Shown piece after piece: positions 4,110 to 63,666 of a stretch of DNA of 64,000 nucleotides. Origin of the DNA: Candidatus Berkelbacteria bacterium (GTDB lineage: Bacteria > Patescibacteriota > UBA1384 > JACPKC01). The notes beneath the pieces were generated by a model. The model had not been told where the DNA came from, did not search any database, and saw only the letters and a program-made list of their open reading frames with translations. The position numbers and the translations under genes are program-made. Each line of letters starts with the position of its first letter. Positions within the stretch are counted from its first letter, which is position 1. The stretch covers positions 67,541-131,540 of the forward strand of contig JACPKC010000010.1 in NCBI GenBank assembly GCA_016187225.1, given 5' to 3'.

Positions 4110-5242
4110 GCTTGTCGCGTTTCCGTGGTTCGAATCGCGACAAGGTTGATTCTTGGTTGCTTTTGAGCGTGCTCATGCTCGTCGGCGTCGGTTTGATCAT
4201 GATTTCATCAGCTTCAGTCGTGCTTTCATCAGAATACTTCGGCTCGAATTATGCCTATTCAAGCAAACAACTCCTACATTTTGGAATTGGTCTAGTCGCT
4301 CTGATTGTCGGTGTACTGGTTGACTATCGTCTATGGCAACGTTTAGCGCCGGCTCTTCTTGGCGTCATAATTCTGTTATTGCTTGCCACCCATATTCCTG
4401 GGTTGGCGCAAACTGCTCAAGGCGCCCAGCGCTGGATCGAACTTGGGCCGATCCAATTCCAGCCTTCGGAACTTGTCAAGATCTTTGCAATTCTTTACTT
4501 TGCCGCTTGGCTCGCGGCAAAAGGCAGTCATTTATCGAGTTTAACGCGAGGCCTTGTGCCATTTATCACCGTCCTCGGGGTGATTACTTTGCTTATTTTC
4601 GCTCAACCCGATGCTGGGACCGCGATGGTGATTCTATTTACGGTAACGACGATGTATTTTATTGCCGGTGCGCCTTGGATGCATTTGTTCTACGCAGGAA
4701 TTTTAGGCGGTAGTTTGTTTGGGCTCTTGATTCTTTCGGCGCCATATCGGCTTCAGCGGTTTTTGGTGTTTTTGAATCCCTCTGAAGAAACTCTCGGCGC
4801 CGCTTATCACATCAACCAGGCTCTCCTTGCGATCGGCGCCGGCGGCATGTTTGGCGTGGGTTTCGGCCAGAGTAAGCAGAAATTTCTCTACTTACCCGAA
4901 CCGCACACTGATTCAATTTTTGCAATTACGATTGAAGAACTTGGTTTTTTGCGGGCAATGTTAATCGTTGCTTTGCTTATTTTCGTAATGTTGCGGGGTT
5001 ATCAAATCGCCCGGGTGGTTCAGGATCCTTTTGGTCGTTACGTTGCCGTAGGGATAACAAGCTTGATTGCCATTCAGACATTTATCAATATCGGAGCCAT
5101 GTTAGGTCTAATGCCGCTGACGGGTGTCACCTTGCCATTTATCAGCTATGGCGGTTCCTCGTTAATCTCCTTGCTTTTTGGAGTTGGGATTCTACTTAAT
5201 ATCTCTCGACAAGCAGTTTTGATCCCGAAAGGAATGCATTAG
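4106..5242 (+). CDS. ftsW: SEDS-family cell division protein FtsW (peptidoglycan polymerase / lipid II flippase family)
   Basis: It is a roughly 10-TM protein with SEDS blocks 'GAQRWIELGPIQFQPSE' and 'LPEPHTDSIFA'. It lies between murD and murG. Confidence 0.9.
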   Translation: MSLSRFRGSNRDKVDSWLLLSVLMLVGVGLIMISSASVVLSSEYFGSNYAYSSKQLLHFGIGLVALIVGVLVDYRLWQRLAPALLGVIILLLLATHIPGLAQTAQGAQRWIELGPIQFQPSELVKIFAILYFAAWLAAKGSHLSSLTRGLVPFITVLGVITLLIFAQPDAGTAMVILFTVTTMYFIAGAPWMHLFYAGILGGSLFGLLILSAPYRLQRFLVFLNPSEETLGAAYHINQALLAIGAGGMFGVGFGQSKQKFLYLPEPHTDSIFAITIEELGFLRAMLIVALLIFVMLRGYQIARVVQDPFGRYVAVGITSLIAIQTFINIGAMLGLMPLTGVTLPFISYGGSSLISLLFGVGILLNISRQAVLIPKGMH

Positions 5243-5402
5243 ATGTGTTCCTCAATAACCTTTATGTCTAAATCGTCTCGAATTTGGCTAAACCAAACGC
5301 TTGCCTCGGTCAGTGTAACTCTCGTTACGTCTCTCTCGGCTTTCATTCGTTTCGCTCAAATTCAAACCAATTTCGAGCATGAAATTATTGGGGAACACAT
5401 CT
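5241..5402. repeat. 160-bp intergenic element flanked by imperfect 17-18 bp inverted repeats (AGATGTGTTCCTCAATAA ... TTATTGGGGAACACATCT); MITE-like or regulatory insert between ftsW and murG
   Basis: The left arm overlaps the ftsW stop codon and the right arm ends 2 nt before the murG ATG. The arms are reverse complements apart from one T/C difference. The same box recurs at 13148 and 63646. Confidence 0.5.
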
Positions 5403-5403
5403 A

Positions 5404-6480
5404 ATGAAGCGCATGATCGTCCTTGCCGGCGGGGGAACCGCCGGACACGTTTACCCGGTTTTAGAAGTGATACAGGCGTTGAGAAACTTAGACCCACTGC
5501 TAGATTTTGCTTATATCGGAAATCAGACTGGCCCCGAGAGTCAGTTGGTGCGAGCAGAGCAGGTGCCATTTTATGGCATTCCGGCCGAAAAACTTCGGCG
5601 TTATTGGGATTGGCGCACCTTTCTTCTACCCTTTCGAATTTTCAAAGGCACAGTCGAAGCCTTTGGGCTTTTAAGGATGTTAAAAGCGCAAGCGGTATTT
5701 TGTAAAGGCGGTTATGTGTGCGTGCCAGTTGCCTTAGCCGCTCGCTTCTTGCGTATTCCGATAATTTTACATGAGACGGATTCGATCATGGGACTTTCAA
5801 ATCGCTTAGTGGCGCCTTTTGCGCAAGCGGTTGCAATTAGTTTTCCACGGCCATCACTTATCGAAGCTGGTAAAAATACGCGCATCGTTTATACCGGTAA
5901 TCCAGTCCGACGAGAATTTTTTTCTCAAAAAAAGATCGAGCGTGTCGATGATCGTCCCTGCCTTGTCATAGTTGGTGGTTCGCAAGGCGCACATGCAATT
6001 AATTATTTCATTCAAGTGATTTTGCCCAAACTGCTCGAGCGCTATCGAGTGATTCATATTACGGGGCCCCAAGAGTTTTCAAATTTCCGTCAATTTACTC
6101 GCACAGATGTTTACGAGCCGGTTGCTTACGCCGAGAAAATCGTTGATCTTTTAGCGCAGGCGGATTTAGTTATCTCGCGCGCTGGTGGCACAATCTTCGA
6201 ATTGGCCGCTCTCGGCAAGCCGACAATCTTAATTCCAATTCCTAATTCAGCCAACAATCATCAGCGCGTGAATGCGGAAATTTTACTAAGTCGCGGGGCG
6301 GCGGTTATGCTGAATGAGCGTCAGCTTCAGCCCGCTCAACTTCTGAAAGAAATTACTACCCTTTTTCGAGATTCGATGCGTCGACAGAAGATGGGTGAAC
6401 GGATTCGAGAATTTGCTAGACCAAATGCCGCCCAAGATGTGGCGACTTTAATTTTAAACTCGATCGAGGACCGAGCATGA
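5404..6480 (+). CDS. murG: Undecaprenyl-PP-MurNAc-pentapeptide-UDPGlcNAc GlcNAc transferase
   Basis: N-terminal 'LAGGGTAGHVYP' glycosyltransferase family 28 motif is present, in dcw context. Confidence 0.9.
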   Translation: MKRMIVLAGGGTAGHVYPVLEVIQALRNLDPLLDFAYIGNQTGPESQLVRAEQVPFYGIPAEKLRRYWDWRTFLLPFRIFKGTVEAFGLLRMLKAQAVFCKGGYVCVPVALAARFLRIPIILHETDSIMGLSNRLVAPFAQAVAISFPRPSLIEAGKNTRIVYTGNPVRREFFSQKKIERVDDRPCLVIVGGSQGAHAINYFIQVILPKLLERYRVIHITGPQEFSNFRQFTRTDVYEPVAYAEKIVDLLAQADLVISRAGGTIFELAALGKPTILIPIPNSANNHQRVNAEILLSRGAAVMLNERQLQPAQLLKEITTLFRDSMRRQKMGERIREFARPNAAQDVATLILNSIEDRA

Positions 6481-13132: not shown

Positions 13133-13147
13133 CATTGCATCATAAAA

Positions 13148-13165
13148 TTATTGGGGAACACATCG
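13148..13165 (+). repeat. Copy of the TTATTGGGGAACACATC box, ending 2 nt before the radA start codon
   Basis: It is an exact match to the box upstream of murG at 5385-5402, apart from the last base. Confidence 0.55.
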
Positions 13166-26705: not shown

Positions 26706-26779
26706 TGGCAGGAGCTGGAGGAATCGAACCACCGACCGCGGTTTTGGAGACCGCTGTTATACCACTTAACTAAGCTCCC
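26706..26779 (-). tRNA. tRNA-Trp (anticodon CCA), CCA encoded
   Basis: Acceptor GGGAGCT/AGCTCCT, anticodon stem GCGGT/ACCGC with loop CTCCAAA, and T-loop GGTTCGATTCC. Confidence 0.8.
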
Positions 26780-26789
26780 TTTCTAATTG

Positions 26790-26978
26790 TTAGGTTCGCG
26801 GTTTTGGATTTGGCAATTTTGTCTCGTTATGTTGAGTGTGTTTGCGGCACCAAGTGCAGTATTTTTCAAGCACAAGCTTATCAGTTGTGTTCACAACATT
26901 TTTTGACACCACATAGTTGCGTCGCTTACATTCGACACAAGTGAGATTAAATTTTTGTCGTTTGCCTTTTTTTGCCAT
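26790..26978 (-). CDS. rpmG: 50S ribosomal protein L33
   Basis: '[27 protein letters not shown]...[16 protein letters not shown]' matches L33 with its Cys4 zinc-ribbon. The start is taken at the internal ATG (MAKKGK) rather than the ORF-track upstream extension. Confidence 0.85.
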
Positions 26979-27010
26979 ATTCTTCCTTTCTTTGTCTTTT
27001 TCTACAAAAC

Positions 27011-27085
27011 TGGAGCCCACGGGCGGATTTGAACCGCCGACCTATTCCTTACCATGGAATTGCTCTGCCTCTGAGCTACGTGGGC
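27011..27085 (-). tRNA. tRNA-Thr (anticodon GGT), CCA encoded
   Basis: Acceptor GCCCACG/CGTGGGC, anticodon stem ATTCC/GGAAT with loop ATGGTAA, and T-loop GGTTCAAATCC. Confidence 0.8.
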
Positions 27086-27086
27086 T

Positions 27087-27173
27087 TGGTGCTGGGGGTA
27101 GGATTCGAACCTACGAAGGCGCTGGGCCGTCAGATTTACAGTCTGATGCGTTTGACCGCTTCGCTACCCCAGC
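27087..27173 (-). tRNA. tRNA-Tyr (anticodon GTA), class II long variable arm, CCA encoded
   Basis: Acceptor GCTGGGG/CCCCAGC, anticodon stem TCAGA/TCTGA with loop CTGTAAA, a long variable arm and T-loop GGTTCGAATCC. Confidence 0.78.
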
Positions 27174-27181
27174 TTGTTATC

Positions 27182-27256
27182 TGGAGCCACCTGTCGGATT
27201 TGAACCGACGACCTTCACTTTACAAAAGTGTTGCTCTACCGCTGAGCTAAGGTGGC
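27182..27256 (-). tRNA. tRNA-Thr (anticodon TGT), CCA encoded
   Basis: Acceptor GCCACCT/AGGTGGC, anticodon loop TTTGTAA and T-loop GGTTCAAATCC. The anticodon stem has one mismatch. Confidence 0.7.
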
Positions 27257-27328
27257 AGGCAATTCTCCAGAAAAATAATACTAGCAAGGTAGAGAGGAAT
27301 ACTCAATGATGGGGGAGCTTATTTTATA

Positions 27329-27389
27329 CACTCTACGAACGTTAAATGATTAGAGAGTGTCTAGATACTCATTTAACGTTCGTAGAGTG
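27329..27389. promoter_or_regulatory. Perfect 21-bp inverted repeat (CACTCTACGAACGTTAAATGA / TCATTTAACGTTCGTAGAGTG) with a 19-nt spacer; candidate operator or RNA hairpin
   Basis: It is seen directly in the sequence. It lies between the tRNA array and the downstream hypothetical gene. It abuts a TATAAT hexamer at about 27390-27395. Confidence 0.6.
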
Positions 27390-27454
27390 TATAATTGACA
27401 GAAGTGGAGTATTCTGATATATTGCTAATGTACGAAGTGTTCTATGGAGGGAAA

Positions 27455-27961: not shown

Positions 27962-28893
27962 TGATAACCGTTATTGAGGAATTTGAAGAACTGATTGACC
28001 ATGGTCACGAGCATTTTGCGTGGATAGAACGCTTTATTGCGATCTATCTTTTTCATTTTGTGATCAATGTTCTAGCCTAAGGGGCTATCCCGAACAAGAC
28101 AGTTTTTCTTCGTTTCAGGTAACCGGCTGAAAACTATTATTCTTCGACTCTCCGTTTTACGGCATTTTTTGAATGTCTCAAACAAGAGCCAGAAGTATAA
28201 ACCCGTCAGTGCGGGCAGATTTTGTTATCGCGAGTGAACCGTAGCGATCCTGGTAGATTGTCGCGGTTGCAACCTCGTAATTTTCAGGATTGCTTCGTCG
28301 TCCTTGGCTCCTCGCAATGACGACAATGAGAAAGCCCTGATAAATAGGGAAACAGGGGATTGAAGGTGGCGTGGATAACTGTGGATAACTTTCACAATGG
28401 GGGAGTGAAAAGGGGATGCCGCGCCTAAACTGTTTAGGCGATTATATGGTGCATGAAAAAGTTTATAAGAGGGGAGTAAAGATTATTTAATGCTAGGGAA
28501 GTGCAAATTTTTTTTATTGTGTGTAATTTTTTATCCTACAAACTCTCCCCCGCTTTCAGCTTGTCGTCGTAAGTCATCCAATTTTTGATAGGCGCATGTT
28601 GCGTACGCTAAAAAACTCATTGATATTTTAGAAATAAAATACTACTCCCCTGCTCCAAATTTTTGCATCATTTGAGATCGTTAGGAAATTTATTTTCTGC
28701 ACCTCGAAAAGAGCGCCAGCGACGCTTTTGCAGAGAAGTCCTCGACTATATAAATAATTCTCGATGCGCTTCGCTTACTCGAACAAGAATACTTTTTAAC
28801 CATCAAAAACTTTCGACACGCCCGGACAAGAACCCAAGGCCAGTCTTGAGCAAAACATTTCTTGCTAATGGGCGGGAGACTTAAGACAGAGAG
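27962..28893. other. About 930-bp gene-free AT-rich region between convergent genes; candidate ncRNA locus or replication-origin-like region
   Basis: No ORF of 60 aa or more on either strand across about 700 bp. Tandem DnaA-box-like motifs CGTGGATAA and TGTGGATAA at about 28370-28388. AT-rich tracts at about 28490-28540. A perfect 8-bp-stem hairpin at about 28422-28440. Confidence 0.4.
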
Positions 28894-33146: not shown

Positions 33147-33809
33147 TTGAGGAGGGGCGTGTTAAGTTTCCAAAATGATGGCATTCAACCGGCTAAGACG
33201 CCGGCAAATGGAGCGGCAGGCCCAGCGCCTGTTCAACCAGCCAAATCTGCTCTTGACCCAAGTGTGGTAGCAATCAACCCGGAATCAAACGATTCGCTAA
33301 TCGCAATTTTTGCGGGTTTAAGTGTTGCTCTTAGTCTCCTCGGCGGTGTTGCGGCCTCATTTTTGCGGGCCCAAGCGAAAGGAGAAGCTGAAGCCTCAAG
33401 TCAAAAAGTGACGAGCCTTCAGCAGGAATTCGCCTCGGGCGATCTTAAAACTATGCTCGATAAGGCTGGTTTAGTTGAAAAACAGCTCGAGGTCACAAAA
33501 GAATTCTCTGCCGCCCTGCCTTGGCCAAAGCTCTTAAAAGCTCTAGCCGACAAAGTCCCTGGATCGGTTAAATTTACGGCCAATTCTTTTGAAACTGACA
33601 AGTCATTAAGAATTGACGGCTCGGCAAATAATTACGCCGAGGTAGCGCGACTCATGACCGCCATCGAGTCGACGGATGAGTTTTCGGAGATTGCGCTGAC
33701 GAGCGCAACTCTTTCTGAATCTGTCGACGGTAATTCGATTACTTTTTCAATCACGGCCAAATATGCGGCGCCAGTCGCTGGAGGGGATGATGGCGGAAAT
33801 ACAAACTGA
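33147..33809 (+). CDS. pilN: Type IV pilus assembly protein PilN-like
   Basis: It has a single TM helix, a coiled coil and the C-terminal PilN-like block 'LRIDGSANNYAEVARLMTAIESTDEFSEIAL'. It is the first gene of the pilus assembly operon. Confidence 0.65.
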   Translation: MRRGVLSFQNDGIQPAKTPANGAAGPAPVQPAKSALDPSVVAINPESNDSLIAIFAGLSVALSLLGGVAASFLRAQAKGEAEASSQKVTSLQQEFASGDLKTMLDKAGLVEKQLEVTKEFSAALPWPKLLKALADKVPGSVKFTANSFETDKSLRIDGSANNYAEVARLMTAIESTDEFSEIALTSATLSESVDGNSITFSITAKYAAPVAGGDDGGNTN

Positions 33810-34389
33810 ATCAACTAAACATAACACTTTGTTGTGGCTAATTTTAGGCGTGATTGGTTCAGCCGCGGCATTCTATTTATATACCTTGCCTCAAATTCGC
33901 GAGCTCAAGCTTTTGCGCACGCAGTCGGCGACGCTTGAGGCTGATCTTTCAAGCTTAAACGAAAAGAAAACCACTGTTGTTAAATTAAACGACGATCTTA
34001 AAAGGAGCACTGCGCTGACTGACAAACTTGCTCTGGCTGTGCCAGAGGATGAGGCTATCGATGAGCTCATTACTTCACTTGAAAAGATTGTTGAAAAAGC
34101 GGGCATTACTTTGTTGTCGGTTCAGCCGGCAAGCAATGTTGAAACAGGCAAGACAACCGCTATGCTTTCAACCCGAGGCTCATATTCCGGCACAACACTA
34201 TTTCTTGAATTTTTAGAAAAGAACCTTCGTCCGATTGGCGTCAATGATCTTGCACTCACAGCGACGTCGGATATTCAAGGCGCGTCGCTGATTAGCGCCT
34301 CATTCGAGATTACTCCTGCCCAGATTGCCAAGGCCGCACCGGCGGCAGAGACGTCCGCTCAAGACACAGAGACAAAAGGAGCCCAATGA
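33787..34389 (+). CDS. pilO: Type IV pilus assembly protein PilO-like
   Basis: It has a TM helix 'LLWLILGVIGSAAAFYLY', a coiled coil and a C-terminal PilO-like fold. The start is taken at an ATG after the GGAGGGG SD; the ORF-track start at 33763 overlaps pilN. Confidence 0.65.
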   Translation: MMAEIQTESTKHNTLLWLILGVIGSAAAFYLYTLPQIRELKLLRTQSATLEADLSSLNEKKTTVVKLNDDLKRSTALTDKLALAVPEDEAIDELITSLEKIVEKAGITLLSVQPASNVETGKTTAMLSTRGSYSGTTLFLEFLEKNLRPIGVNDLALTATSDIQGASLISASFEITPAQIAKAAPAAETSAQDTETKGAQ

Positions 34390-34637
34390 ATCGGCCCATA
34401 GTAATTGGCATCGGTTTAGGAGTGAATCTCATTCTTGCGGGTGTGACACTTTGGCTGATTATGCGCGCCGTGCCCATGACGTCGGATATTGAAAGCGCCC
34501 GGACAAAAGTTGAACCTGCGCCAAAATTTACGATCAAAGATATCGAGGCGCTTAAATTGGATGAAAAAACCCTGAATGGTGACTTGCCGATCTCGATTGA
34601 TGGAGTTGGGCGTGTCGATCCATACGCGGGGATTTAG
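34386..34637 (+). CDS. Small single-TM protein (83 aa) between pilO and pilB; possible minor pilus-assembly component
   Basis: There is an ATGA overlap with pilO. The TM helix is 'IVIGIGLGVNLILAGVTLWLI'. There is no family match. Confidence 0.45.
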   Translation: MNRPIVIGIGLGVNLILAGVTLWLIMRAVPMTSDIESARTKVEPAPKFTIKDIEALKLDEKTLNGDLPISIDGVGRVDPYAGI

Positions 34638-34642
34638 CAATT

Positions 34643-37153
34643 ATGGTGAACCCTCAAGCCCAAAATAATTTGGAGATTCTCAAAAAAACGGCCGCTGAAC
34701 TCGGCCTTGAGCTTGTCGCACTCACCCAGGACACTCCTGAACAATCCGCCCTGGCTCTGGTGCCCGAAGCATTGGCGCGTCAATATCAGTTACTGCCTTT
34801 AACTCTTAAAGAGAAATCACTCACTCTCGTCTTAACTGATCCAGCGCTCTTGACAAAACCAGCGCCCAAATTTCTGCAGGAACTCAAGCAAAACGGGTAT
34901 CATCTGCGTTTGCAACTCACATCCAGCGAGGATTTTCAAACTGCTTTGGGAGCTTATCGACCACAAGTCAATGGCCAGAGGCCACTATCCAGAGTGAATA
35001 ACGCTCAAAGTCAGAACATGCAAGCGAAAACAACTGTGCAGGCAGGTCCTCAACCAGTAACTAGTATACCCCCAGTCGCTTCACCCGCACTTTCGGTGCC
35101 AGCCTCGGTGCATTCGGCGCAAGTCGAGTTAGTTATATTGAAAAGCAGAGAAGTGCCTTTGAACGTTTTAAACAAATTCCCCCAGGACGTGGCGAAAAAG
35201 TATCAGATGGTTGTGTTTGAACTTTCAGCCGACGGTCAGGAGGCATCCGTTGCCGCCCTTAAACCTAACGACCGTCGAATTCGAGAAATTCTCAAGTTTA
35301 TTGAGGCGCGAAACAAGGTTCGAATTCATTTATTCTCGGCGAGTAAAGAGGATATTGAAGGAGTATTGAAGCAATATGACACAGAGCACAGAGAAGACAA
35401 AAAACCAGCCCAAGCTCCAACGCCAATTTCTTCGATCTCTACTCCGCCTGCGCAGAAGTCAGCCATGGTTTCGGCGCCACTAAAGCCGAGTTTTGCGCCG
35501 ACAATTCTCACTCCTTCAGTGAAACCTAATTCTGTGTCGCGCATTCCACCCAAACCCGTTTCAGCGCCGCTCCCAGTTGTCCCCAAAAGACCTATCTTGT
35601 CGCCTTTGCCGACGCCGCTGGCGGCGCGGCCAGTTACGCCCATTGGGCCCAAAATCGGCGGCCTTACACCAGCTCAACCAATTGCGCCCGAGACGCCAAA
35701 TAGTTTGGGCACGACCGATCTTAAATCATACCAAGAAGCAATCATTCGTAATTCTGCCACTCTTCGAGATCCAAGTACGCCGGTTCCAACGGTCGAAGTT
35801 GGTGATTTACAACTCCCAACCAATCAACTTGGCGTGGGCGAGTTGCCGGAAGGACAAGCGCCGATTATGATAACCAATATCGGCGCAGAAGATAAAAATC
35901 TCGACATAGTTCTCGGCACGACCGTTGAAACTTCTGAACAACTTGAGCAAATTCTTAAATCTGGCATGGTGCCAAAAATTGTCGCCGCGATCGTGTTTTA
36001 CGCCACTGCCGTGGCCGCATCCGATATTCACATGGAGGCTGGTGAGAAAGAGGTTCGGATTCGCTTTCGTGTTGATGGCACTTTACAGGAAATTATCAAA
36101 TTGCCGGTTCAACTTTTGGCGCCGATTGTGTCGCGCATCAAAATTTTAGCCAAACTCAAAATCGATGAATCGCGCATCCCGCAAGATGGCCGTTTCGGGG
36201 TGATTGTGCAAAAGCGGGAAATTGATCTGCGAGTTTCAACCCTGCCAACAGTTTTCGGCGAAAAAGTGGTTATGCGGATTCTCGATAAAGAAAAAAGTTT
36301 GAAAAAACTCACTGAATTGGGTATTCAGGGTACTAATCTCGCTCGAATCCAGTCAGCAATCAAAGACCCCTTTGGTATCATTTTAGTGACTGGTCCGACC
36401 GGTTCAGGCAAGACCACAACACTTTACGCGATGTTAACTGAACTCAATACCGCAAGTGTCAACATTGTTACTCTCGAAGACCCGGTCGAGTATCAGCTTG
36501 ATGGCATCAATCAGACCCAGGTCAAGCCAAAAATCGGCTTTGGTTTTGCCGATGGTTTACGTTCAATTCTGCGGCAAGACCCGAACATTATTATGGTTGG
36601 CGAGATTCGCGATGGAGAGACTGCCGGCCTGGCAACTCAAGCCGCGTTGACCGGTCACCTGGTGCTTTCAACTTTGCATACCAACGACTCATCTGGAGCG
36701 CTTCCCCGGATGATCGATATGCACGTTGAACCATTCCTCCTAGCTTCTTCGGTGAATATCGTGATTGCCCAGCGTTTGATTCGTCGCTTGTGCTCAAAGT
36801 GTCGCCAGCCAGCCTCAATTCCGGCCGAAACTCTCACTCGCATTCAGCAGGAGCTCGCCTCGGCATTCGCTCCTGAACTTAAATCAGCGGCGAGTAAGCA
36901 ACTTTCTTTCTTCGGCCCAAATCAAAAGGGCTGCAATGTCTGTCATAATGGTTATAAGGGTCGGGTCGGGATTTACGAAGTTCTAATTACCAGTCCGGCT
37001 ATCGCCGATCTCGTTCTTGCTAAATCCGCCTCGTCCAAAATTGCGGCTAAAGCTCACGAAGAGGGGATGATCACACTTAGAGAAGACGGCATCCTTAAAG
37101 CCATGCAAGGTGAAACATCGCTTGACGAAGTCATTCAAGCCACCAGCGAATAG
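34643..37153 (+). CDS. pilB: Type IV pilus assembly ATPase PilB (GspE family) with a duplicated N-terminal T2SSE_N-like domain and a Pro-rich linker
   Basis: Walker A 'VTGPTGSGKTTTLYAML', Asp box 'IMVGEIRD', His box 'GHLVLSTLHTND', and the tetracysteine motif 'CSKCRQ...CNVC'. Two N-terminal domains are separated by an approximately 150-aa Pro/Ala/Ser-rich segment. Confidence 0.9.
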   Translation: MVNPQAQNNLEILKKTAAELGLELVALTQDTPEQSALALVPEALARQYQLLPLTLKEKSLTLVLTDPALLTKPAPKFLQELKQNGYHLRLQLTSSEDFQTALGAYRPQVNGQRPLSRVNNAQSQNMQAKTTVQAGPQPVTSIPPVASPALSVPASVHSAQVELVILKSREVPLNVLNKFPQDVAKKYQMVVFELSADGQEASVAALKPNDRRIREILKFIEARNKVRIHLFSASKEDIEGVLKQYDTEHREDKKPAQAPTPISSISTPPAQKSAMVSAPLKPSFAPTILTPSVKPNSVSRIPPKPVSAPLPVVPKRPILSPLPTPLAARPVTPIGPKIGGLTPAQPIAPETPNSLGTTDLKSYQEAIIRNSATLRDPSTPVPTVEVGDLQLPTNQLGVGELPEGQAPIMITNIGAEDKNLDIVLGTTVETSEQLEQILKSGMVPKIVAAIVFYATAVAASDIHMEAGEKEVRIRFRVDGTLQEIIKLPVQLLAPIVSRIKILAKLKIDESRIPQDGRFGVIVQKREIDLRVSTLPTVFGEKVVMRILDKEKSLKKLTELGIQGTNLARIQSAIKDPFGIILVTGPTGSGKTTTLYAMLTELNTASVNIVTLEDPVEYQLDGINQTQVKPKIGFGFADGLRSILRQDPNIIMVGEIRDGETAGLATQAALTGHLVLSTLHTNDSSGALPRMIDMHVEPFLLASSVNIVIAQRLIRRLCSKCRQPASIPAETLTRIQQELASAFAPELKSAASKQLSFFGPNQKGCNVCHNGYKGRVGIYEVLITSPAIADLVLAKSASSKIAAKAHEEGMITLREDGILKAMQGETSLDEVIQATSE

Positions 37154-37161
37154 GAGTTCCG

Positions 37162-38268
37162 ATGGTTGAGACGCAATCCACGCAAGCCATGTTGGGCGCC
37201 AACGATCGCTCACTTTCACCACATTTAAGCGAGATGCTTAAATTCGCAATTGAACATAGCGCTTCTGACTTACACATTCAAATCGGCGTGCCGCCAGTTA
37301 TCCGCATCGACGGCAAACTTCGCTCGGTGCCAGATCAGCCCCTTTATACTCAAGAATCGGCGGCCGCCGACGTGCTTTCGAGTCTAGGGACCGTGCAACG
37401 CGAACGCTTTGCGACCGAACGCGAACTCGACTTTTCTTTTACCTTTGAAACGATGCGCTTACGTTGCAATGTTTACTATGAAAAAGGCAACATCGTCGGC
37501 GCTTACCGATTAATTCCAACTCAAATTCGAACTGTTGAACAACTTGGCTTGCCGCCGGTTTTGGTTCAGTTAACCGAACACAAACAAGGACTCGTGATTA
37601 TTACTGGCCCAACTGGCCATGGCAAATCCACCACGCTGGCGGCTTTAATCGACCATATTAATCACAATCGCTCCGAGCACATTATTACAATTGAGGATCC
37701 AATCGAGTACATTTTCGCAAATCAGAAAAGCGTCATCTCCCAACGTGAAGTGGGCTTCGATACCAAAACTTTCGCCAATGCCTTGCGCGCTTCCATGCGC
37801 CAAGACCCGAATGTAATTTTAGTCGGTGAGATGCGCGATTTGGAAACGATGGCTTCAGCGTTAACGCTCGCTGAAACTGGTCATTTAGTTTTCACAACTT
37901 TGCACACCAACTCCTCGGCCGAAACCGCTGATCGCATTATCGATGTCTTTCCGCCGCATCAACAACAGCAGATTCGCTCTCAACTTGCCTCGGTTTTATT
38001 GGGCGTCATTTCTCAACGTCTCCTGCCTAAAATCAATGGCGGGCGAGTTGCGGCGGCAGAAATTATGCTGGGCACAACCGCCGTTCGAAATACCATTCGC
38101 GAGGGCAAGACTCATCAGCTCGACAATATTATTCTCACCGGTTCAGCCGAGGGTATGATTAATCTCGATGCTGTGCTTGCCGGTCTCGTTAATAAGGGGG
38201 AAGTTACAATTGACGATGCGATCAACTGGGCGCGCGATTCTAAACAACTCAAGATTAATATCTTTTAG
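37162..38268 (+). CDS. pilT: Twitching motility (pilus retraction) ATPase PilT
   Basis: 'ITGPTGHGKSTTLAALIDHIN', 'ILVGEMRD', 'GHLVFTTLHTNS' and the AIRNLIRE-like block 'AVRNTIREGK' are present. Confidence 0.9.
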   Translation: MVETQSTQAMLGANDRSLSPHLSEMLKFAIEHSASDLHIQIGVPPVIRIDGKLRSVPDQPLYTQESAAADVLSSLGTVQRERFATERELDFSFTFETMRLRCNVYYEKGNIVGAYRLIPTQIRTVEQLGLPPVLVQLTEHKQGLVIITGPTGHGKSTTLAALIDHINHNRSEHIITIEDPIEYIFANQKSVISQREVGFDTKTFANALRASMRQDPNVILVGEMRDLETMASALTLAETGHLVFTTLHTNSSAETADRIIDVFPPHQQQQIRSQLASVLLGVISQRLLPKINGGRVAAAEIMLGTTAVRNTIREGKTHQLDNIILTGSAEGMINLDAVLAGLVNKGEVTIDDAINWARDSKQLKINIF

Positions 38269-38270
38269 TT

Positions 38271-39353
38271 ATGCCCGAGCCCGTAAAAAAACCCGCCCTC
38301 AAGTTCGAGATTGATATTCCTTTTTTGAATAATGTTTCAGTGAGAGAGAAGTCTTTTTTAGCGCGCCAGCTGGCCACGATGCTTGCAAGCGGTTTGGCGC
38401 TTAATCGTGCCGTGGCTATTCTCGTAGCTCAAACTCAAAACAAAACCCTTAAAACGGCGCTTCAGGGTATTGAAACAGATCTCGAGGGCGGCTTGCCGTT
38501 TTCGGGCGCAATTGCCAAACATCCAAAGATTTTTGACCGAGTTTTCGTGAACGTGGTAATTTCGGGCGAAAGCGTGGGGCGCTTGGCGGATGTGCTCAAT
38601 CAACTTGCCGACCAGCTTGAAAAAGATTCCGGCTTCATGAATCGAGTTAAAGGCGCTCTGGCTTATCCAGCCTTTGTCTTTGTGGCGATGATCGTTGTCG
38701 GCGCAATTACGATGGTTTACATCATTCCGCAACTTCAAAGTGTCTTCGAGGAAGCCGGCGCCGAATTGCCATTTTTAACTCGCATGATTATCGCTATAAG
38801 TCATTTTCTACAAAACTATTGGTGGTTAATTATTATTTTTGTCGTCGTAGGTTTAGCTGTTGGTCGCACATATTTTCGTTCCAAAGCGGGCGAGCGTCTC
38901 TGGGGGCTGATTCAACTTCACCTTCCAGGGCATCTTGGCTACGATATCTATATGGCCAGGTTTAATCGCACCCTGGGAATGCTCGTGCAAGCCGGCACAC
39001 CAATTATCGAAGCAATCAGTGTCACGGCGTCGGTGATGGATAATCTGCTTTATCGCGAGTATTTGGCGGCGGCGGCCGATCAAGTTAAACGCGGCGTCCC
39101 GCTTTCCGTGCCTCTTCAAAAAACCGCGCTTTTTCCGCTCATTGTTGGCCAGATGATCGCAGTTGGCGAGCAAACAGGTCGCCTCGATCAGATTCTCTTA
39201 AAACTCGCCGAGTATTATGAAGAGGAAGCAGATAGTAAAATCAAGCAATTAAGCAGTTTAATTGAGCCGATTGTAATCGTTTTGATCGGTGTTGGAGTGG
39301 GGATTCTTGTCTATGCGATCCTGGTGCCAATCTATAATATCGCACAGTTCTAA
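38271..39353 (+). CDS. pilC: Type IV pilus platform protein PilC (GspF family)
   Basis: It has two T2SSF repeats and about three TM segments. A GspF-type block 'AYPAFVFVAMIVV' is present. Confidence 0.88.
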   Translation: MPEPVKKPALKFEIDIPFLNNVSVREKSFLARQLATMLASGLALNRAVAILVAQTQNKTLKTALQGIETDLEGGLPFSGAIAKHPKIFDRVFVNVVISGESVGRLADVLNQLADQLEKDSGFMNRVKGALAYPAFVFVAMIVVGAITMVYIIPQLQSVFEEAGAELPFLTRMIIAISHFLQNYWWLIIIFVVVGLAVGRTYFRSKAGERLWGLIQLHLPGHLGYDIYMARFNRTLGMLVQAGTPIIEAISVTASVMDNLLYREYLAAAADQVKRGVPLSVPLQKTALFPLIVGQMIAVGEQTGRLDQILLKLAEYYEEEADSKIKQLSSLIEPIVIVLIGVGVGILVYAILVPIYNIAQF

Positions 39354-39870
39354 GGGTTTTACGCTTTTAGAGCTCATGATCGTTATCACGATCGGCGGTA
39401 TTTTAATTAGTGTTGTCGGCATGAATTTTTCGTCAACGCGAAGGCAGGCGCGGGACGCGGTGCGGAAAAGTGACGTTGAGGCGATTCAAACGGCGCTCGA
39501 GCTTTATTACAACGCTCACAATGAGTTTCCCAATTTCAATACCTGGGCAACGAGCAATAACTCGATCGGATCTGGCAATTGGGCCTCGCTTCAGCAGGAT
39601 TTAAGCCCATATTTAAGTTCAATGCCGACCGATCCGGTGAATGCGAGTGGAACTACGCCTGAAAATGGCGGGCTGGCTTACGGCTATCTATCCACAGCCG
39701 CCTATGGTTGCACTGGACAATGGTATGTTCTTGTTTATACACTTGAAGTTGAGAACGATCCCGCTTTAACTCGAAGCCCAGGGATTTCTACTTGCAACAG
39801 TCAAACGCTTAACGATAGCAACCTTGCAAGCGCTCCTTGGACGTTTTGGGTCGGTGTCTCTGGGAGTTAA
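39313..39870 (+). CDS. Type IV pilin-like protein (prepilin with an N-terminal methylation motif)
   Basis: Class III signal 'KG/FTLLELMIVITIGGIL'. The start is ambiguous (GTG 39289 or ATG 39313) because the leader overlaps the pilC 3' end. Confidence 0.75.
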   Translation: MRSWCQSIISHSSKGFTLLELMIVITIGGILISVVGMNFSSTRRQARDAVRKSDVEAIQTALELYYNAHNEFPNFNTWATSNNSIGSGNWASLQQDLSPYLSSMPTDPVNASGTTPENGGLAYGYLSTAAYGCTGQWYVLVYTLEVENDPALTRSPGISTCNSQTLNDSNLASAPWTFWVGVSGS

Positions 39871-39970
39871 AATATGCTAGAGTAATCAAAAGGTATTTAT
39901 CGATCGAAGTTGAGAACGTCTTGGCTCTATCGGACAAAAATTATCACTCACAATAATAAAAGGAGGCAGA

Positions 39971-40465
39971 ATGAATTTACATAGAAGTAAACAACGAGGT
40001 TTCACGCTCCTCGAGCTCCTCGTTGTGGTTGCGATTATCGCGATTTTAGCCGCGGTGATTGTGGCAAACTTAAACTCGGCGCGAAGTAAGGCAAATGATG
40101 CCAAGGTGAAGCAGGATCTCAATGGCGTCGATCAGGCACTTGCAGTTGCGACCGCTGACCCATCGGTTCTTGGATCGGCGCCTTTAAACGCCTTAAATAA
40201 TGGCGGCGGCGTTTTAGTTGATATCGACACCGAAACGGCGCTAACAGTTAATGGTTATCTTAAGACTTTTCCAATTCCACCATCGGGTATAACGCAATAT
40301 AACTATCGTAGCAACTATTCCAATGGGATTTTCGGCTATGTGTTGTGGGGTACACTCTCAACAAAAACTGGCGCAAACAATGACTGCTGGGTTATAAACA
40401 CCGGTAACGCTTTTCAGTCGAACGGCTGTCTTGCCGCCGATACAACTGGTGTAACACTTCCGTAA
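39971..40465 (+). CDS. pilA: Type IV pilin, probable major pilin PilA
   Basis: Strong SD AAAGGAGG. Leader 'MNLHRSKQRG' is followed by 'FTLLELLVVVAIIAILAAV', which is the canonical prepilin peptidase site. Confidence 0.85.
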   Translation: MNLHRSKQRGFTLLELLVVVAIIAILAAVIVANLNSARSKANDAKVKQDLNGVDQALAVATADPSVLGSAPLNALNNGGGVLVDIDTETALTVNGYLKTFPIPPSGITQYNYRSNYSNGIFGYVLWGTLSTKTGANNDCWVINTGNAFQSNGCLAADTTGVTLP

Positions 40466-40478
40466 TTTAAGAATTTTC

Positions 40479-41273
40479 ATGTCGGAGTTTGAGCAAGCGG
40501 TCAATTTTTGGCCGCTTGCGGCGATTTTTGGTCTGTTTTGGGGTTCATTCTTGAATGTTCTTGCTTTGCGCTGGGGTTCAAAGTATCGAGGCTTGACACT
40601 CGCAGAACGGAGTCACTGCCCAAAGTGCCAAAAAATTTTAAATTGGCACGAGCTTCTGCCCCTAATAAGTCTTATACTTTTACACGGCCGTTGCCGAGGC
40701 TGTCGAAAAAAAATTGACTTGCGCTATCCAGGCGTTGAAATTTTAACCGCAGTTTTTCTTGGGGGAATAGTTTTTAAGTATGGGTTGTCAGCTCAAGCCT
40801 TAACTCTGTCAGTTGCCGGGAGTTTGCTTTTGATCGCGGCGCTAGTTGATTTTGAAACTCAAATTTTACCCGATTCTTTAGTTGCAAGCGCTTTCGTTTT
40901 AACTCTCCTTGTAACACTTTTACTGGGTCAATCAGCGCTTGTGAATCTAGCGTTTCCAGTTTCCAGTTGGTGGCGGGGCGCCTTAACCGGCGGGTTGATC
41001 ATCGGCGCGATTTTTCTTCTTACGCGTGGGAAGGGGATTGGTTTTGGCGATGTTAAATTAGCGACCGTGCTCGGATCAGTAGTCGGTATGAGCGGCGCCC
41101 TACTTATGTTGTGGAGCGCGTTTATTTTGGGCAGTCTTGTGGGCGGAACACTTCTACTTCGTCGCCGCGCAACCTTAAAGACCGCTCTTCCATTCGGCCC
41201 CTTTTTATTTGCTGGCTGGCTGATCGCGCTTTTTTGGGGTCGTGACATCATTGCATGGTATACTCAATTATAA
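40479..41273 (+). CDS. pilD: Prepilin peptidase PilD (A24 family)
   Basis: N-terminal zinc-binding 'CPKCQ...CRGC', a polytopic membrane domain and the catalytic Asp motif 'GFGDVKL'. Confidence 0.85.
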   Translation: MSEFEQAVNFWPLAAIFGLFWGSFLNVLALRWGSKYRGLTLAERSHCPKCQKILNWHELLPLISLILLHGRCRGCRKKIDLRYPGVEILTAVFLGGIVFKYGLSAQALTLSVAGSLLLIAALVDFETQILPDSLVASAFVLTLLVTLLLGQSALVNLAFPVSSWWRGALTGGLIIGAIFLLTRGKGIGFGDVKLATVLGSVVGMSGALLMLWSAFILGSLVGGTLLLRRRATLKTALPFGPFLFAGWLIALFWGRDIIAWYTQL

Positions 41274-41292
41274 TATTGACGGGTAATAAGTT

Positions 41293-41796
41293 ATGCGTAA
41301 AAACGATACTAATCAGGGTTTCTCGCTTATCGAACTCTTAATCGTCATGGTTATTATTGGTATGTTGGCAACCGTCGTTACTATTTCGTCTTCAGCCTCA
41401 AGGGCGCAGGCGCGCGATAGTCGCCGCAAATCCGATGTCCAGACCGTGGCCGCGGCGCTTGAAACTTATCGAGTTGAGAACAAAGTTTACCCAACCGAGA
41501 ATAACTTCTCCGGAAGCTGGGACGACCTCAAAGTCGTGCTTTTCCCCGATTTTATTTCCGAATGGCCCGACGATCCACAAGGCAATGCCAGTCAATATGG
41601 CGAGGGGTATGTGTACGCAACCGACTCGCTTGGTTCGGCTTACGCGCTTGACGTCACCTTAGAAGGGGATGAAGACGTAACCTTGCAACCCAACGAAATC
41701 GACGAAACTTTGACAGTTAATCCAGATGAAGATTTTTTCGTCACAGGTATCTATAGTTATGGCGGCGACACCCATTACCGCTTCAGCGGCCGGTAA
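41293..41796 (+). CDS. Type IV minor pilin/pseudopilin-like protein
   Basis: Leader 'MRKNDTNQG/FSLIELLIVMVIIGMLA' is a prepilin motif. Confidence 0.78.
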   Translation: MRKNDTNQGFSLIELLIVMVIIGMLATVVTISSSASRAQARDSRRKSDVQTVAAALETYRVENKVYPTENNFSGSWDDLKVVLFPDFISEWPDDPQGNASQYGEGYVYATDSLGSAYALDVTLEGDEDVTLQPNEIDETLTVNPDEDFFVTGIYSYGGDTHYRFSGR

Positions 41797-42283
41797 GGGC
41801 TTTACCCTTATTGAACTTATCATTTCGATGGCGATCATCGTGATGCTTTTAGGTTTGGGAATTCCAGCTTTTCGACGCTATGGTTTACGAGCTGATCTAG
41901 AAAATGCAGGTGTGACTTTAGCCACTAATATCTTTCGGGCGCGCACTTTAAGTTTGGCGCCCGAAGCGAGCAAAGAAGGTAATATCACGGCCTACGGCGT
42001 TGCTTTTGATGCTCTGAATAATAAATACCGCATTGCGCGCTTTAGTGGCGAGGGGGCAAACGTTCAAGAAGAAAGCGTCGTCGATCAATTTCTTTTACCC
42101 AATCAGGTCGCTTTTTCGGTTGCGCCTGCCGAGCCGATTCTTTTTCCGCTTGCTCTTCAAGGCGAGCCGGCCCAGCTGCCCGCGGATAGCAACCTCGCTC
42201 TTTTACACACTCGACTCGCCCAAAACAACTCGCGGACTATAAACATCAATCAAGTTACCGGTCAAGTCAGCTTAGAGGAGTAA
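41759..42283 (+). CDS. Type IV minor pilin-like protein
   Basis: Prepilin motif 'AGKG/FTLIELIISMAIIVMLLGL'. The start is taken at the internal ATG; the ORF-track start at 41726 overlaps the upstream pilin. Confidence 0.7.
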   Translation: MAATPITASAAGKGFTLIELIISMAIIVMLLGLGIPAFRRYGLRADLENAGVTLATNIFRARTLSLAPEASKEGNITAYGVAFDALNNKYRIARFSGEGANVQEESVVDQFLLPNQVAFSVAPAEPILFPLALQGEPAQLPADSNLALLHTRLAQNNSRTININQVTGQVSLEE

Positions 42284-43492: not shown

Positions 43493-43644
43493 ACACAGTT
43501 GATATCCGCGTATCATTACGAGGAGCCAAGGGCGACGGAGTAATCTGGTAAAGATTACCGCATAGTCGAAAAGTCTCGACAAATTTGAGCAGAAACATGT
43601 ACACTCGGCGGAGTTTTGTAATCTTTCCAAGGAGGTAAGTTGTT

Positions 43645-48171: not shown

Positions 48172-49265
48172 GGTTCCAACTCTTGCGCTTTATCGACTGG
48201 TACCTCGTCGGGATAGTTTTAATTTTAGTAGTTGGTGGTGTGGCGATGATCTACAGTCTCACTTTTGCCCGCTCCGGTTCCGAACTCGCTTTCACACAAG
48301 GCGCGTTCGTGATTTTGGGCTGGATCACGGCGTCCATTTTGGCAGTTTTTGATTACCGCCGACTGCGTTCGTTCAGTCTGCTATTGTATCTTGCAGTTGG
48401 CTTACTGCTCTTGGGCGTTACGTTTTACGGTACGGTCGTTTTCGGTGCGCGTCGCTGGATCGAGATTGGCGCATTCCAACTCCAACCATCTGAATTGTTC
48501 AAGCTAGTCGCGGTCATCTTAATTGCCCGAGTCCTCGCCGCTCGCTTTGGCGCGATTCGTTTTAGAGATTTATTTGTTGTTAGTCTCTTATTAGGTCTTC
48601 CGATTACTCTAGTGCTGAAACAGCCGGACTTAGGGACAGCCGGTGTTATATTTTTAACGTTCGTAATAATTCTGACGATCGCAAAACTGCCGCGCTCGCT
48701 TTGGGTTAGCATCGGCCTAAGCCTGCCCATCCTTATGTTGGCGATTTTTTTGAATCTTAAAGACTATCAAATTGACCGGGTTCAAGTTTTCCTCAATCCT
48801 GCGTCCGATCGTTACGGCTCTGGCTATAACGTCCTTCAGTCCTTAATTGCAGTTGGCAATGGCGGTCTGTTTGGTCAGGGACTGGGTCAGGGAACGCAGA
48901 GCCAGCTTGATTTTTTACCCGTCATTCATACCGACTTTATCTTTGCCGGCATGGCTGAAGCAGTTGGCTTTTTTGGCTCTTTTGCCTTTCTCGTACTTTT
49001 CGCCGCTTTAATCATTCGAGCGCTAATGATTTCTCATCGAGCGCCGGATGCATTTGGTTCATTCTTGGCCTTTGGCATCGCTAGCCTGTGGTTCGTTCAA
49101 CTGGCGATTAATGTGGGGATGAATTTAGGGCTTGCGCCCGTAACAGGCATCCCACTTCCTTTCATCTCTTACGGAGGCACCGCGATTGTGTGTAATTTTA
49201 TCGCACTGGGGATTCTTGAAAGCATTGCAATTCGGTCACAGCAAGGTTATTTTCGCACATATTGA
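48168..49265 (+). CDS. rodA: SEDS-family protein RodA-like (second SEDS paralog in the window)
   Basis: 'GARRWIEIGAFQLQPSE' and 'LPVIHTDFIFA' SEDS blocks. It has about 10 TM segments and an ATGA overlap with ileS. Confidence 0.8.
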   Translation: MRFQLLRFIDWYLVGIVLILVVGGVAMIYSLTFARSGSELAFTQGAFVILGWITASILAVFDYRRLRSFSLLLYLAVGLLLLGVTFYGTVVFGARRWIEIGAFQLQPSELFKLVAVILIARVLAARFGAIRFRDLFVVSLLLGLPITLVLKQPDLGTAGVIFLTFVIILTIAKLPRSLWVSIGLSLPILMLAIFLNLKDYQIDRVQVFLNPASDRYGSGYNVLQSLIAVGNGGLFGQGLGQGTQSQLDFLPVIHTDFIFAGMAEAVGFFGSFAFLVLFAALIIRALMISHRAPDAFGSFLAFGIASLWFVQLAINVGMNLGLAPVTGIPLPFISYGGTAIVCNFIALGILESIAIRSQQGYFRTY

Positions 49266-61399: not shown

Positions 61400-62230
61400 A
61401 TGCAAAAATCTATCGCAATCGTTGCGTTTGCCTTGATGGTGACAGCTGGATCCTCAAGTGTATTCGCGGCGACCGTGCAAAATAACAACAGCTCTACGAG
61501 TCAGAGCCAGAACACTAACGCCGTTACAACGGTTGTTAATACTGGCAGTGGCTCCGCGGCTGGTTCAAGTAGTTCGGCGAGCGCCCAGGATTCGTCAACG
61601 AATCAATCGAACGAGAGGCAATCAACTTCGACTTCGCAAAGTTCGGGCACTGCGACTACAGGTTTGGTGCAAAATAACAATGTTAGCACCAGTCAAAGCC
61701 AGAACGTAAACGCCACCACAACGGTTGTTAACACCGGCAGTGGGAATGTGAGCGGCTCGGCGAGCGCCAGTGGCGGTCAAGCGTCAGAAACAACGCAAAG
61801 CAACTTTGCTTCTGGAAACAGCCAAAATCGGACCGAAAATAACAACAGTTCGATTAGCCAAAGCCAGAACGTGAATTGCGGCACAACCGTTGTCAATACC
61901 TCATCAGGTGATGCCTCTGGTGCGTGTGCGGCGGCAGGTAGCCAAACGGCAACTACGACACAGTCGAACACAACCGAACAGACTCAAACGAAAAAGAATG
62001 AGACCAAGATTGAACAAGCCCAATCAGTGGCACAAGCAACTTCAGTGGCTGGTGTTCCAACCACAACCACTCAAGTCCCGCCGGTTACAACCAAAACCGA
62101 GCTTCCGAAAGAGCTCCTGAAGACGGGTGCAAATACGGTTGCTCTCGCGCTTGGTAGCGCAGTGATCTCAGCCGGTGGCGCAGCATTCGCTCGTCGCAAG
62201 CAGATGGTCGCAGATCTCATCGTTGGCTAA
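61400..62230 (+). CDS. Surface repeat protein: signal peptide, three tandem repeats of about 38 aa (VQNNNxSTSQSQNxNAxTTVVNTGSG...), Thr-rich stalk and a C-terminal LPXTG-like sorting signal
   Basis: Three tandem repeats are visible. The C-terminus 'LPKELLKTGANTVALALGSAVISAGGAAFARRKQ' is a motif + hydrophobic helix + basic tail. Confidence 0.7.
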   Translation: MQKSIAIVAFALMVTAGSSSVFAATVQNNNSSTSQSQNTNAVTTVVNTGSGSAAGSSSSASAQDSSTNQSNERQSTSTSQSSGTATTGLVQNNNVSTSQSQNVNATTTVVNTGSGNVSGSASASGGQASETTQSNFASGNSQNRTENNNSSISQSQNVNCGTTVVNTSSGDASGACAAAGSQTATTTQSNTTEQTQTKKNETKIEQAQSVAQATSVAGVPTTTTQVPPVTTKTELPKELLKTGANTVALALGSAVISAGGAAFARRKQMVADLIVG

Positions 62231-63641: not shown

Positions 63642-63645
63642 TGCT

Positions 63646-63662
63646 AGATGTGTTCCCAATAA
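63646..63662 (-). repeat. Inverted-orientation copy of the TTATTGGGGAACACATC box (plus strand AGATGTGTTCCCAATAA), 4 nt upstream of the pth start
   Basis: It matches copies at 5241-5258, 5385-5402 and 13148-13165, with one G fewer. Confidence 0.5.
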
Positions 63663-63666
63663 TTTT

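Follow-up and report, generated by a model that had tools for sequence, protein, structure and literature searches.

A palindromic repeat between ftsW and murG in a Candidatus Berkelbacteria genome, probably one copy of a small MITE-like family

The DNA considered here, called the window below, is a stretch of 64,000 nucleotides from a Candidatus Berkelbacteria bacterium (GCA_016187225.1, contig JACPKC010000010.1, positions 67,541 to 131,540 of the forward strand). It contains a division and cell wall (dcw) gene cluster, and our subject is an element that lies in this cluster between ftsW and murG. The stop codon of ftsW, TAG, is at 5240-5242 and the ATG of murG at 5404, which leaves a gap of 161 nt between the two genes. 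This gap is exceptional, as the other dcw junctions near ftsW and murG are either 4-nt overlaps or are 9-32 nt apart. An earlier reading of the letters alone, called the original prediction in the following, had described a 160-bp spacer in an otherwise tight cluster, and this description is borne out (161 nt versus -4 to +32 nt). The parts of the element and its flanks are the following, with position 1 being the first letter of the window:

5240-5241, no strand: left TA flank, a putative target-site duplication read from the sequence
5242-5401, + strand: candidate MITE-like (miniature inverted-repeat transposable element) palindromic non-autonomous repeat, 160 bp, assigned from its inverted repeat, its hairpin, profile matches in the relative L133/L134 and its absence from the junction in four relatives
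5242-5266, + strand: left terminal inverted repeat (box), 25 nt, GATGTGTTCCTCAATAACCTTTATG, with two substitutions and one insertion relative to the box consensus
5315-5328, + strand: apical stem-loop GTAAC-TCTC-GTTAC in the middle of the palindrome, with a stem that is kept in the L133/L134 copy
5378-5401, - strand: right terminal inverted repeat (box), 24 nt, with one substitution relative to the consensus
5402-5403, no strand: right TA flank, a putative target-site duplication, with the murG ATG at 5404 directly after it

The symmetry of the element is not confined to its ends. These are of the GATGTGTTCCCCAATAA type and are complementary over 24-25 nt (5242-5266 with 5378-5401), while a repeat finder extends the inverted arms to 50 nt at 74% complementarity, and the two halves can be aligned in register to the centre, that is, over ca 85 nt. 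The original prediction had noted reverse-complementary ends; the ends are indeed inverted, but the symmetry that they belong to runs through the whole unit. The folding of the 160-bp unit that was proposed at the time yields one long hairpin. A 170-nt stretch folds as a single imperfect hairpin with an RNA folding energy of -58.1 kcal/mol, compared to -26.1 ± 3.3 kcal/mol for shuffled sequences (z -9.7), and none of 200 shuffles folds as well as the element; with DNA parameters the z-score is -7.2. In the predicted fold, the region of the ftsW stop is paired with the GGGGAA...UAAUG of murG, the GGGGAA of the right box being located 11-16 nt 5' of the murG ATG. Rfam 15 at gathering thresholds, applied to the whole window, reported five tRNAs and nothing at the element, and permissive settings over 5150-5500 gave noise only, with E above 3.

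We now turn our attention to the borders of the element. In-silico removal of 5242-5403, that is, of the element together with one TA, gives ...ATG CAT TAATG AAG... (CATTAATG), in which the TAA stop codon of ftsW shares one base with the ATG of murG, a standard stop/start overlap. In the present arrangement, the left TA together with the first base of the element, a G, makes up the TAG of ftsW at the very position of the restored stop, and on the other side the right TA and the ATG leave TAATG intact at the start of murG. From this sequence pattern we infer that the TA/TA flanks of the window copy may reflect a target-site duplication of TA.

The MurG of the window is MBI2589985.1, from a metagenome-assembled genome, and its closest counterparts among 5.8 billion proteins are 54-56% identical to it. 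The relatives compared were L126, L128, L135/L136 and L137 (GCA_016198525.1). All four have a syntenic dcw cluster with an ftsW-murG overlap of 4-8 nt and with neither spacer nor box; the comparison of ftsW-murG spacing proposed with the original prediction accordingly gave four overlaps without an insert. An nhmmer profile search of ca 1 Mb of loci, including ca 100 kb from these four relatives, found no copies beyond those in the window and in L133/L134, which will be described below. There was no match when the element was compared by BLAST to plasmids and phages, nor when viral contigs were scanned with a pattern composed from the conserved interior. As a separate observation, L137 has a 104-nt AT-rich spacer of its own at 6144-6247, between murD and ftsW, with the short inverted repeats TTTTCAATTTTCAAT / ATTGCAAATTGAAAA. 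It folds no better than shuffled sequences (z -0.4), and its sequence is unrelated to the window element.

The element contains a single open reading frame (ORF):

5264-5404, + strand: 46-codon pass-through ORF, HYW32_03125 (MBI2589984.1), a hypothetical protein in GenBank, without a codon-position coding signature

It begins with an ATG in the left box and ends with a TAA overlapping the murG ATG (TAATG). A phmmer search with the translation of this ORF against 1.84 billion representative proteins matched P0121 (46 aa, 83% identical to the window ORF), P0122 (84 aa, 59%) and P0123 (57 aa, 51% by phmmer and 48% in a four-sequence alignment), the last of which has a near-identical cluster member, P0124. 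A profile search of 90% protein clusters gave nothing beyond the phmmer set, and a search with the minus-strand translation, for copies called on the opposite strand, gave none. The apical stem is kept in P0121 and P0122 as well, where it appears as the amino acids V-T-x-V-T.

P0121 is HYW32_01570 (MBI2589696.1), which is encoded in the same genome as the window but on another contig (161,004 bp, while the window copy is on a contig of 320,597 bp). Its presence can be seen also in the Logan assemblies, which are k=31 de Bruijn graph assemblies in which each 31-mer is unique (PMC12424806). In two samples, the ftsW-bearing Logan contigs both end at 5369 and the murG-bearing ones both start at 5351. 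Since each 31-mer is unique at this k, such contigs stop 30 nt into an exact repeat, and their ends define the following stretch:

5340-5380, + strand: 41-nt stretch that these samples must contain a second time, at another locus and in identical form, from the Logan contig ends

P0121 and the window ORF differ at codon 26 (first base 5339) and at codon 40 (5381), with no difference in between. The limits of the exact repeat and the differences in P0121 agree to the base, which shows that the sequenced population contains a near-identical second copy. Hence, a full copy, HYW32_01570, has been added to the four boxes of the original prediction. It follows also that short-read assemblies of the host organism break at the element. 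Both halves of the element are reproduced in two independent Logan assemblies, which excludes an assembly artefact as its source.

Breaks inside the element, together with 24-nt inverted repeats around a short segment, could also be signs of an inverton, in which a 112-bp switch is flipped by a site-specific recombinase. We consider this extremely improbable. The interior is itself palindromic, so that a flip would change little, there is no promoter-like site inside the element, and no recombinase Pfam domain was found in the window ORFs scanned. Moreover, the 41-nt exact repeat in common with the second copy fully explains the breaks, whose positions are not those of the inner repeat edges.

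A more distant copy, the one encoding P0123/P0124, is carried by L133 (an ENA contig) and L134 (GCA_900206355.1). It is located between murC and a gene starting MTKRR, which is probably ftsQ-like, and the end of the element again reads ...TC TAATG. The host of this copy is well separated from that of the window, with MurG 41% and MurC 39% identical and a GC content of 59% versus 48%. The L133 copy and the window element nevertheless share 113 of 159 positions (71% nucleotide identity) in an alignment with one gap of 1 nt. The interior is 75% identical and the terminal boxes 58-68%. The L133/L134 copy, too, folds as one hairpin (-45.5 kcal/mol, z -3.5), and in a consensus fold of the window and L133 sequences both partners have changed in five stem pairs without loss of pairing; four of these pairs belong to the terminal repeats. 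The GC content of the element is 42% in the window and 52% in L133/L134, that is, it tracks that of the host, which suggests long residence rather than very recent transfer.

The distant copy makes it possible to judge whether the spacer is instead a small-protein gene, coding for a partly hydrophobic 46-aa peptide translationally coupled to murG. Such a gene would agree with the GenBank annotation of HYW32_03125, with the equally long 46-aa paralogue HYW32_01570 and two more homologous ORFs, and with the overlap between its stop and the murG start. The differences between the ORF and the L133 copy are, however, distributed over codon positions 1/2/3 as 16/11/11, and the amino-acid identity is 48%, compared to 71% for the nucleotides; the third-position excess expected of a selected protein at such divergence is missing, and for this reason the ORF is probably not a conserved protein, as judged from the sequences. 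No Shine-Dalgarno sequence precedes the ATG at 5264, in a genome that uses clear GGAGG sites, the DNA is palindromic from end to end, and the ORF boundaries vary among the copies (57 and 84 aa). The intact frames of the homologues carry no weight here, as these were found by translation, which makes open frames an ascertainment effect. The small-protein explanation is therefore highly improbable, and neither HYW32_03125 nor HYW32_01570 is likely to be a gene. The original prediction had stated that there was no credible ORF; an ORF of 46 codons does exist, but it has no coding signature. It may be translated as a bridge to murG.

The terminal repeat of the element occurs also by itself in the window, at two places:

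13141-13164, - strand: solo box, 24 nt, identical to the consensus, filling most of the 34-nt sodA-radA spacer
63647-63669, + strand: solo box, 23 nt, with one C deleted and TA before it, the inner ATG (63667-63669) being the start of pth

The 17-mer TTATTGGGGAACACATC is found exactly at 5385-5401 and 13148-13164 and, inverted and with one mismatch, at 5242-5258. With up to three mismatches allowed, 0.12 occurrences per window would be expected by chance under a dinucleotide-preserving null, and none of 100 shuffles reached three matches, so the recurrence is indeed far above chance, as originally claimed. Alignment of the four sites shows that the conserved unit is 24 nt long, GATGTGTTCCCCAATAATTTTATG. 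The 18-nt box of the original prediction does recur, but it is a part of this longer unit. Relative to the 24-nt consensus, the radA box has no differences, the pth box one deletion, the right arm of the element one substitution, and the left arm two substitutions and an insertion. The pth copy had been reported before and is real and inverted (63647-63662), although it reads CCC for CCCC and is a 16-mer with a 1-nt deletion, owing to which a mismatch-only search misses it. Also the placement 2 nt 5' of the radA ATG (13167) is confirmed, with the exact 17-mer at 13148-13164; the outer end of this box is at the same distance from its start codon as the right box is from murG. The window and its Logan flanks, 82.8 kb in total, contain these four boxes only.

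At pth, the TA before the box is at 63645-63646, where the radA box has GA. The protein begins MKIIVGLGNP, and the gene call in L129 begins at the box-derived ATG. No similarity extends past the box at either radA or pth. In L136, SOD and radA are 3 nt apart, while the gap in the window is 34 nt, with the box taking up 24 nt of it. Since the relatives have neither spacer nor box, and the SOD-radA gap in L136 is this short, the spacer and the radA box are lineage-specific additions. On the basis of this analysis, we infer that the two solo boxes are deletion remnants of full elements, a proposal for which single Correia repeats in Neisseria provide a precedent (PMC2649163). The start codon of pth and the leader of radA would then derive from the ends of the repeat.

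An alternative is that the box of 17-24 nt is itself the functional unit, a DNA-binding-protein or translational operator at gene starts, and that the 160 bp are two such sites facing each other. This would account for the fact that three of the four boxes abut a start codon at a fixed distance (2 nt before the murG and radA ATG, and with the inner ATG as the pth start), and for the solo boxes being near-identical to the consensus. But the boxes occur in both orientations relative to the mRNA, and an RNA-level operator cannot read all of them; the box has no internal dyad and forms no hairpin, all four folding at a minimum free energy (MFE) of 0 kcal/mol, no better than shuffles and without self-complementarity. 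Scans for sigma-70 promoters found none at any of the three loci, and terminator scans of the same loci gave one weak terminator-like match overlapping the pth box, which we judge to be incidental. The box is also absent 5' of murG and radA in the relatives. Finally, the similarity of the arms runs through the whole 160 bp, and the full unit recurs elsewhere with the box as its most diverged part. The box as the functional unit is thus very unlikely. The two explanations offered in the original prediction come out differently: the translational operator is unsupported, given the two orientations, the absence 5' of the same genes in relatives and the ordinary GGAGG sites, while the MITE-like repeat gains support from the inverted ends, the TA/TA flanks, the restored TAATG, the empty sites, the second copy and the diverged copy at another junction.

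A few further observations concern the box sequence. A scan of JGI metagenomes with a 20-mer gave one chance match, within a coding region, and a scan of 596 Gb of genome contigs with TTATTG[N]GGAACACATC gave 120 chance matches, this pattern being too short. The 16-mer TTATTGGGAACACATC, which is the pth form of the box, consists of the exact codons for NYWEHI, part of the WQRNYWEHIIRNE motif, which we take to be that of IS200-like/RAYT tyrosine transposases. These codons dominate the genome-contig scan, with matches in genomes of many phyla (L012, L017, L023, L026, L030, L032, L033, L046 and ca 25 more). The match appears to be coincidental, though a curious one to meet at a mobile repeat's end. 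AGATGTGT is common to the box and the Tn5 mosaic end, and a Nextera adapter artefact was considered for this reason; it is rejected, as the likeness does not extend past 8 nt and independent assemblies have the boxes at internal positions. Contaminating adapter sequence does occur in these Logan assemblies, as L138 (a Logan contig from SRR12113383, related Berkelbacteria) starts at 1-19 with the Nextera/Tn5 mosaic-end adapter AGATGTGTATAAGAGACAG. The outside end of IS10 may also bear some likeness to the box, but it would misfit a 2-bp duplication.

Our interpretation of these results is that the spacer represents one member of a small family of non-coding, hairpin-forming, MITE-like mobile repeats of ca 160 bp in Candidatus Berkelbacteria, to which we assign a probability of roughly 60%. 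The element has the size of a MITE (160 bp), and its sole ORF, of 46 codons, has no homologues outside copies of the element. It has terminal inverted repeats, and the L133 copy keeps these ends with compensating changes. Copies are found at non-homologous sites, on two contigs of this genome and at the murC junction elsewhere, and the four relatives provide empty sites.

Several results weigh against this interpretation. No transposase was found among the window ORFs that were scanned or that have precomputed Pfam matches. Between genomes, conservation is higher in the core than at the ends, the reverse of what recognition by a transposase alone would lead one to expect. The L133/L134 copy is flanked by TC/TA, so that a TA duplication is seen at the window copy and not at the other. 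The two copies of known context are both inside dcw clusters, which hints at a function or at local hopping rather than at random insertion. The copy number appears to be low, with two full copies and two solo boxes, and the protein search yielded only four clusters. In addition, the solo boxes at radA and pth have 0-1 differences from the consensus, compared to three in the left arm, which is odd for old remnants and suggests either that they arose recently or that they are under selection as initiation regions.

Some of these points would be accommodated if the element were a functional, cis-acting structure of the dcw operon, an RNA hairpin or processing site or a protein-binding palindrome that sets cell-wall gene expression, perhaps once mobile and now domesticated. 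The dcw location of both copies (ftsW|murG here and murC|ftsQ-like in L134) speaks for it, as do the 71% identity with one 1-nt gap between hosts this distant, the GC content shifted towards that of the hosts, the hairpin kept through five stem pairs changed on both sides, and the blocks ATTTGGCT, GTAAC-N4-GTTAC and CGTTTCGCTCAAAT, which are invariant or nearly so in all copies. Against this, the element is missing from the dcw clusters of four closer relatives, the junction is not the same in the two genomes, the second copy is on another contig, the ends occur alone beside the unrelated genes radA and pth, and there is no Rfam family. The number of independent DNA sequences is two, and compensatory changes are equally expected of transposon ends. 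We regard a functional or domesticated element as unlikely, but as the main rival to the mobile repeat. Should the association with dcw hold up, the element would regulate the expression of cell-wall genes in a lineage-specific manner.

One may also think of an element that is more than selfish DNA, a domesticated operon-junction cassette of the Berkelbacteria dcw cluster, in which the palindromic core carries a binding or processing site, the ends provide the stop, leader and start, and the pass-through ORF keeps the coupling. This would explain the dcw location of both copies at ca 40% protein identity, the conservation of the core over the ends, and the near-consensus solo boxes. A cassette of this kind, slotted between overlapping essential genes, could uncouple or tune their expression. 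We consider it quite unlikely.

Returning to the mobile repeat, a possible course of events can be outlined. The element would have inserted at the TA of an ancestral TAATG overlap, duplicating the TA. A TA target is typical of IS630/Tc1-mariner-type transposases, and an enzyme of this type may have acted in trans. The insertion could have been tolerated as the first G of the element rebuilds an in-place TAG for ftsW, and as TA-ATG is kept for murG, with the end of the element supplying a G-rich, A/U-rich leader. The 46-codon frame would let ribosomes read through and melt the hairpin of -58 kcal/mol that otherwise buries the murG start, and then re-initiate. The boxes at radA and pth would be one-arm remnants of former copies after internal deletions, a single deletion being enough to derive either site from a full element. 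At pth, the deletion may have taken place between the ATG of the element and that of the gene, since only such a deletion keeps the essential gene intact, and the remnants would persist because they now are the radA leader and the pth start codon. In the dcw transcript, the hairpin may plausibly be a site for RNase III or affect stability, as has been shown for Correia and ERIC elements.

The window contains a number of other features. There is a second short repeat family of 33 nt, TCATTACGAGGAGCCAAGGGCGACGGAGTAATC, at 28288-28320 and 43513-43545, the two copies being 88% identical and inverted (BLAST E 4e-8) and both in gaps between ORFs according to rough ORF calls. Beside the tRNA cluster at 26709-27256, a 29-bp inverted repeat with 97% complementarity and a 13-nt loop is found at 27324-27394; it folds at -41.5 kcal/mol (z -8.3), is followed by TATAATTGACA, and may serve as terminator, operator or attachment site. 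Three 64-nt direct repeats at 61479-61899, 75% identical and spaced 192 and 165 nt, are part of a 276-aa ORF at 61400-62230, which points to an internally repeated protein. A second protein of the FtsW/RodA/SpoVE family (365 aa) is encoded by the ORF at 48168-49265, 3' of a gene for an isoleucyl/valyl-type tRNA synthetase, and this paralogy of ftsW explains the DNA similarity between 4421-4480 and 48444-48503 (72% over 60 nt). A type IV pilus block at 33147-42283 comprises PilN, PilO, two T2SSE ATPases, a T2SSF platform protein, prepilins with N-methylation motifs and an A24 prepilin peptidase. Such blocks are typical of episymbionts of the candidate phyla radiation (CPR), and no link to the element was seen.

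CPR genomes are very small and densely packed, and mobile DNA is considered scarce in them; we found no description of MITE-type repeats in CPR in the searchable literature. If the element is mobile, the present case illustrates how a palindromic repeat can survive in an essential, translationally coupled operon, namely by landing on TAATG, rebuilding the stop and keeping the start.

It is useful to compare the element with known palindromic repeats. The Correia elements of Neisseria (CREE/nemis) are similar in having ca 105-157 bp, terminal inverted repeats of ca 26 bp around a core, and no transposase of their own, and the target that they duplicate is reportedly the dinucleotide TA. No likeness in sequence to the Correia repeat was seen in the boxes. 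The host phyla differ (here CPR/Patescibacteria), as do the copy numbers, with 100-250 for Correia versus an apparent handful here. Moreover, no promoter-like or IHF-like site was detected in the window element, and it is palindromic as a whole and not only at the ends. According to PMC2649163, the target sequence of Correia elements is duplicated on insertion, and a Neisseria genome contains 123 CREE and nine single Correia repeats, the latter being read as deletion fragments. According to PMC10969869, Correia elements are located beside or between genes and are co-transcribed with them, and the hairpin RNA is cut by RNase III at the repeats. The same source states that co-transcription of ERIC elements affects mRNA stability.

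ERIC elements of Enterobacteria are, like the element here, imperfect palindromes along their whole length (ca 127 bp) in transcribed intergenic regions of operons. Their sequence is unrelated, however, and they have no clear TA duplication; they are widespread and of fairly high copy number, whereas the family in the window is rare and lineage-restricted. The RPE of Rickettsia share the size (ca 100-150 bp), the palindromic form and the occurrence in a host-dependent bacterium with a reduced genome. Their reading frame stays open, so that an insertion does not interrupt translation (PMC10969869). While RPE are in frame inside genes and become part of the protein, the window element is intergenic and has a separate 46-codon ORF bridging stop and start. 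The REP/REPIN system, mobilised by RAYT, likewise combines inverted doublets of a short repeat, forming a long hairpin, with decaying singlets. A REP unit is a small palindrome with a 5' GTAG, whereas the box in the window has neither self-complementarity (MFE 0) nor GTAG; membership in REP/REPIN is rejected on the grounds that the box is not self-palindromic, and no RAYT is encoded in the window ORFs checked. The element is no sequence member of any described family, and it behaves like the palindromic repeats of the Correia/ERIC type.

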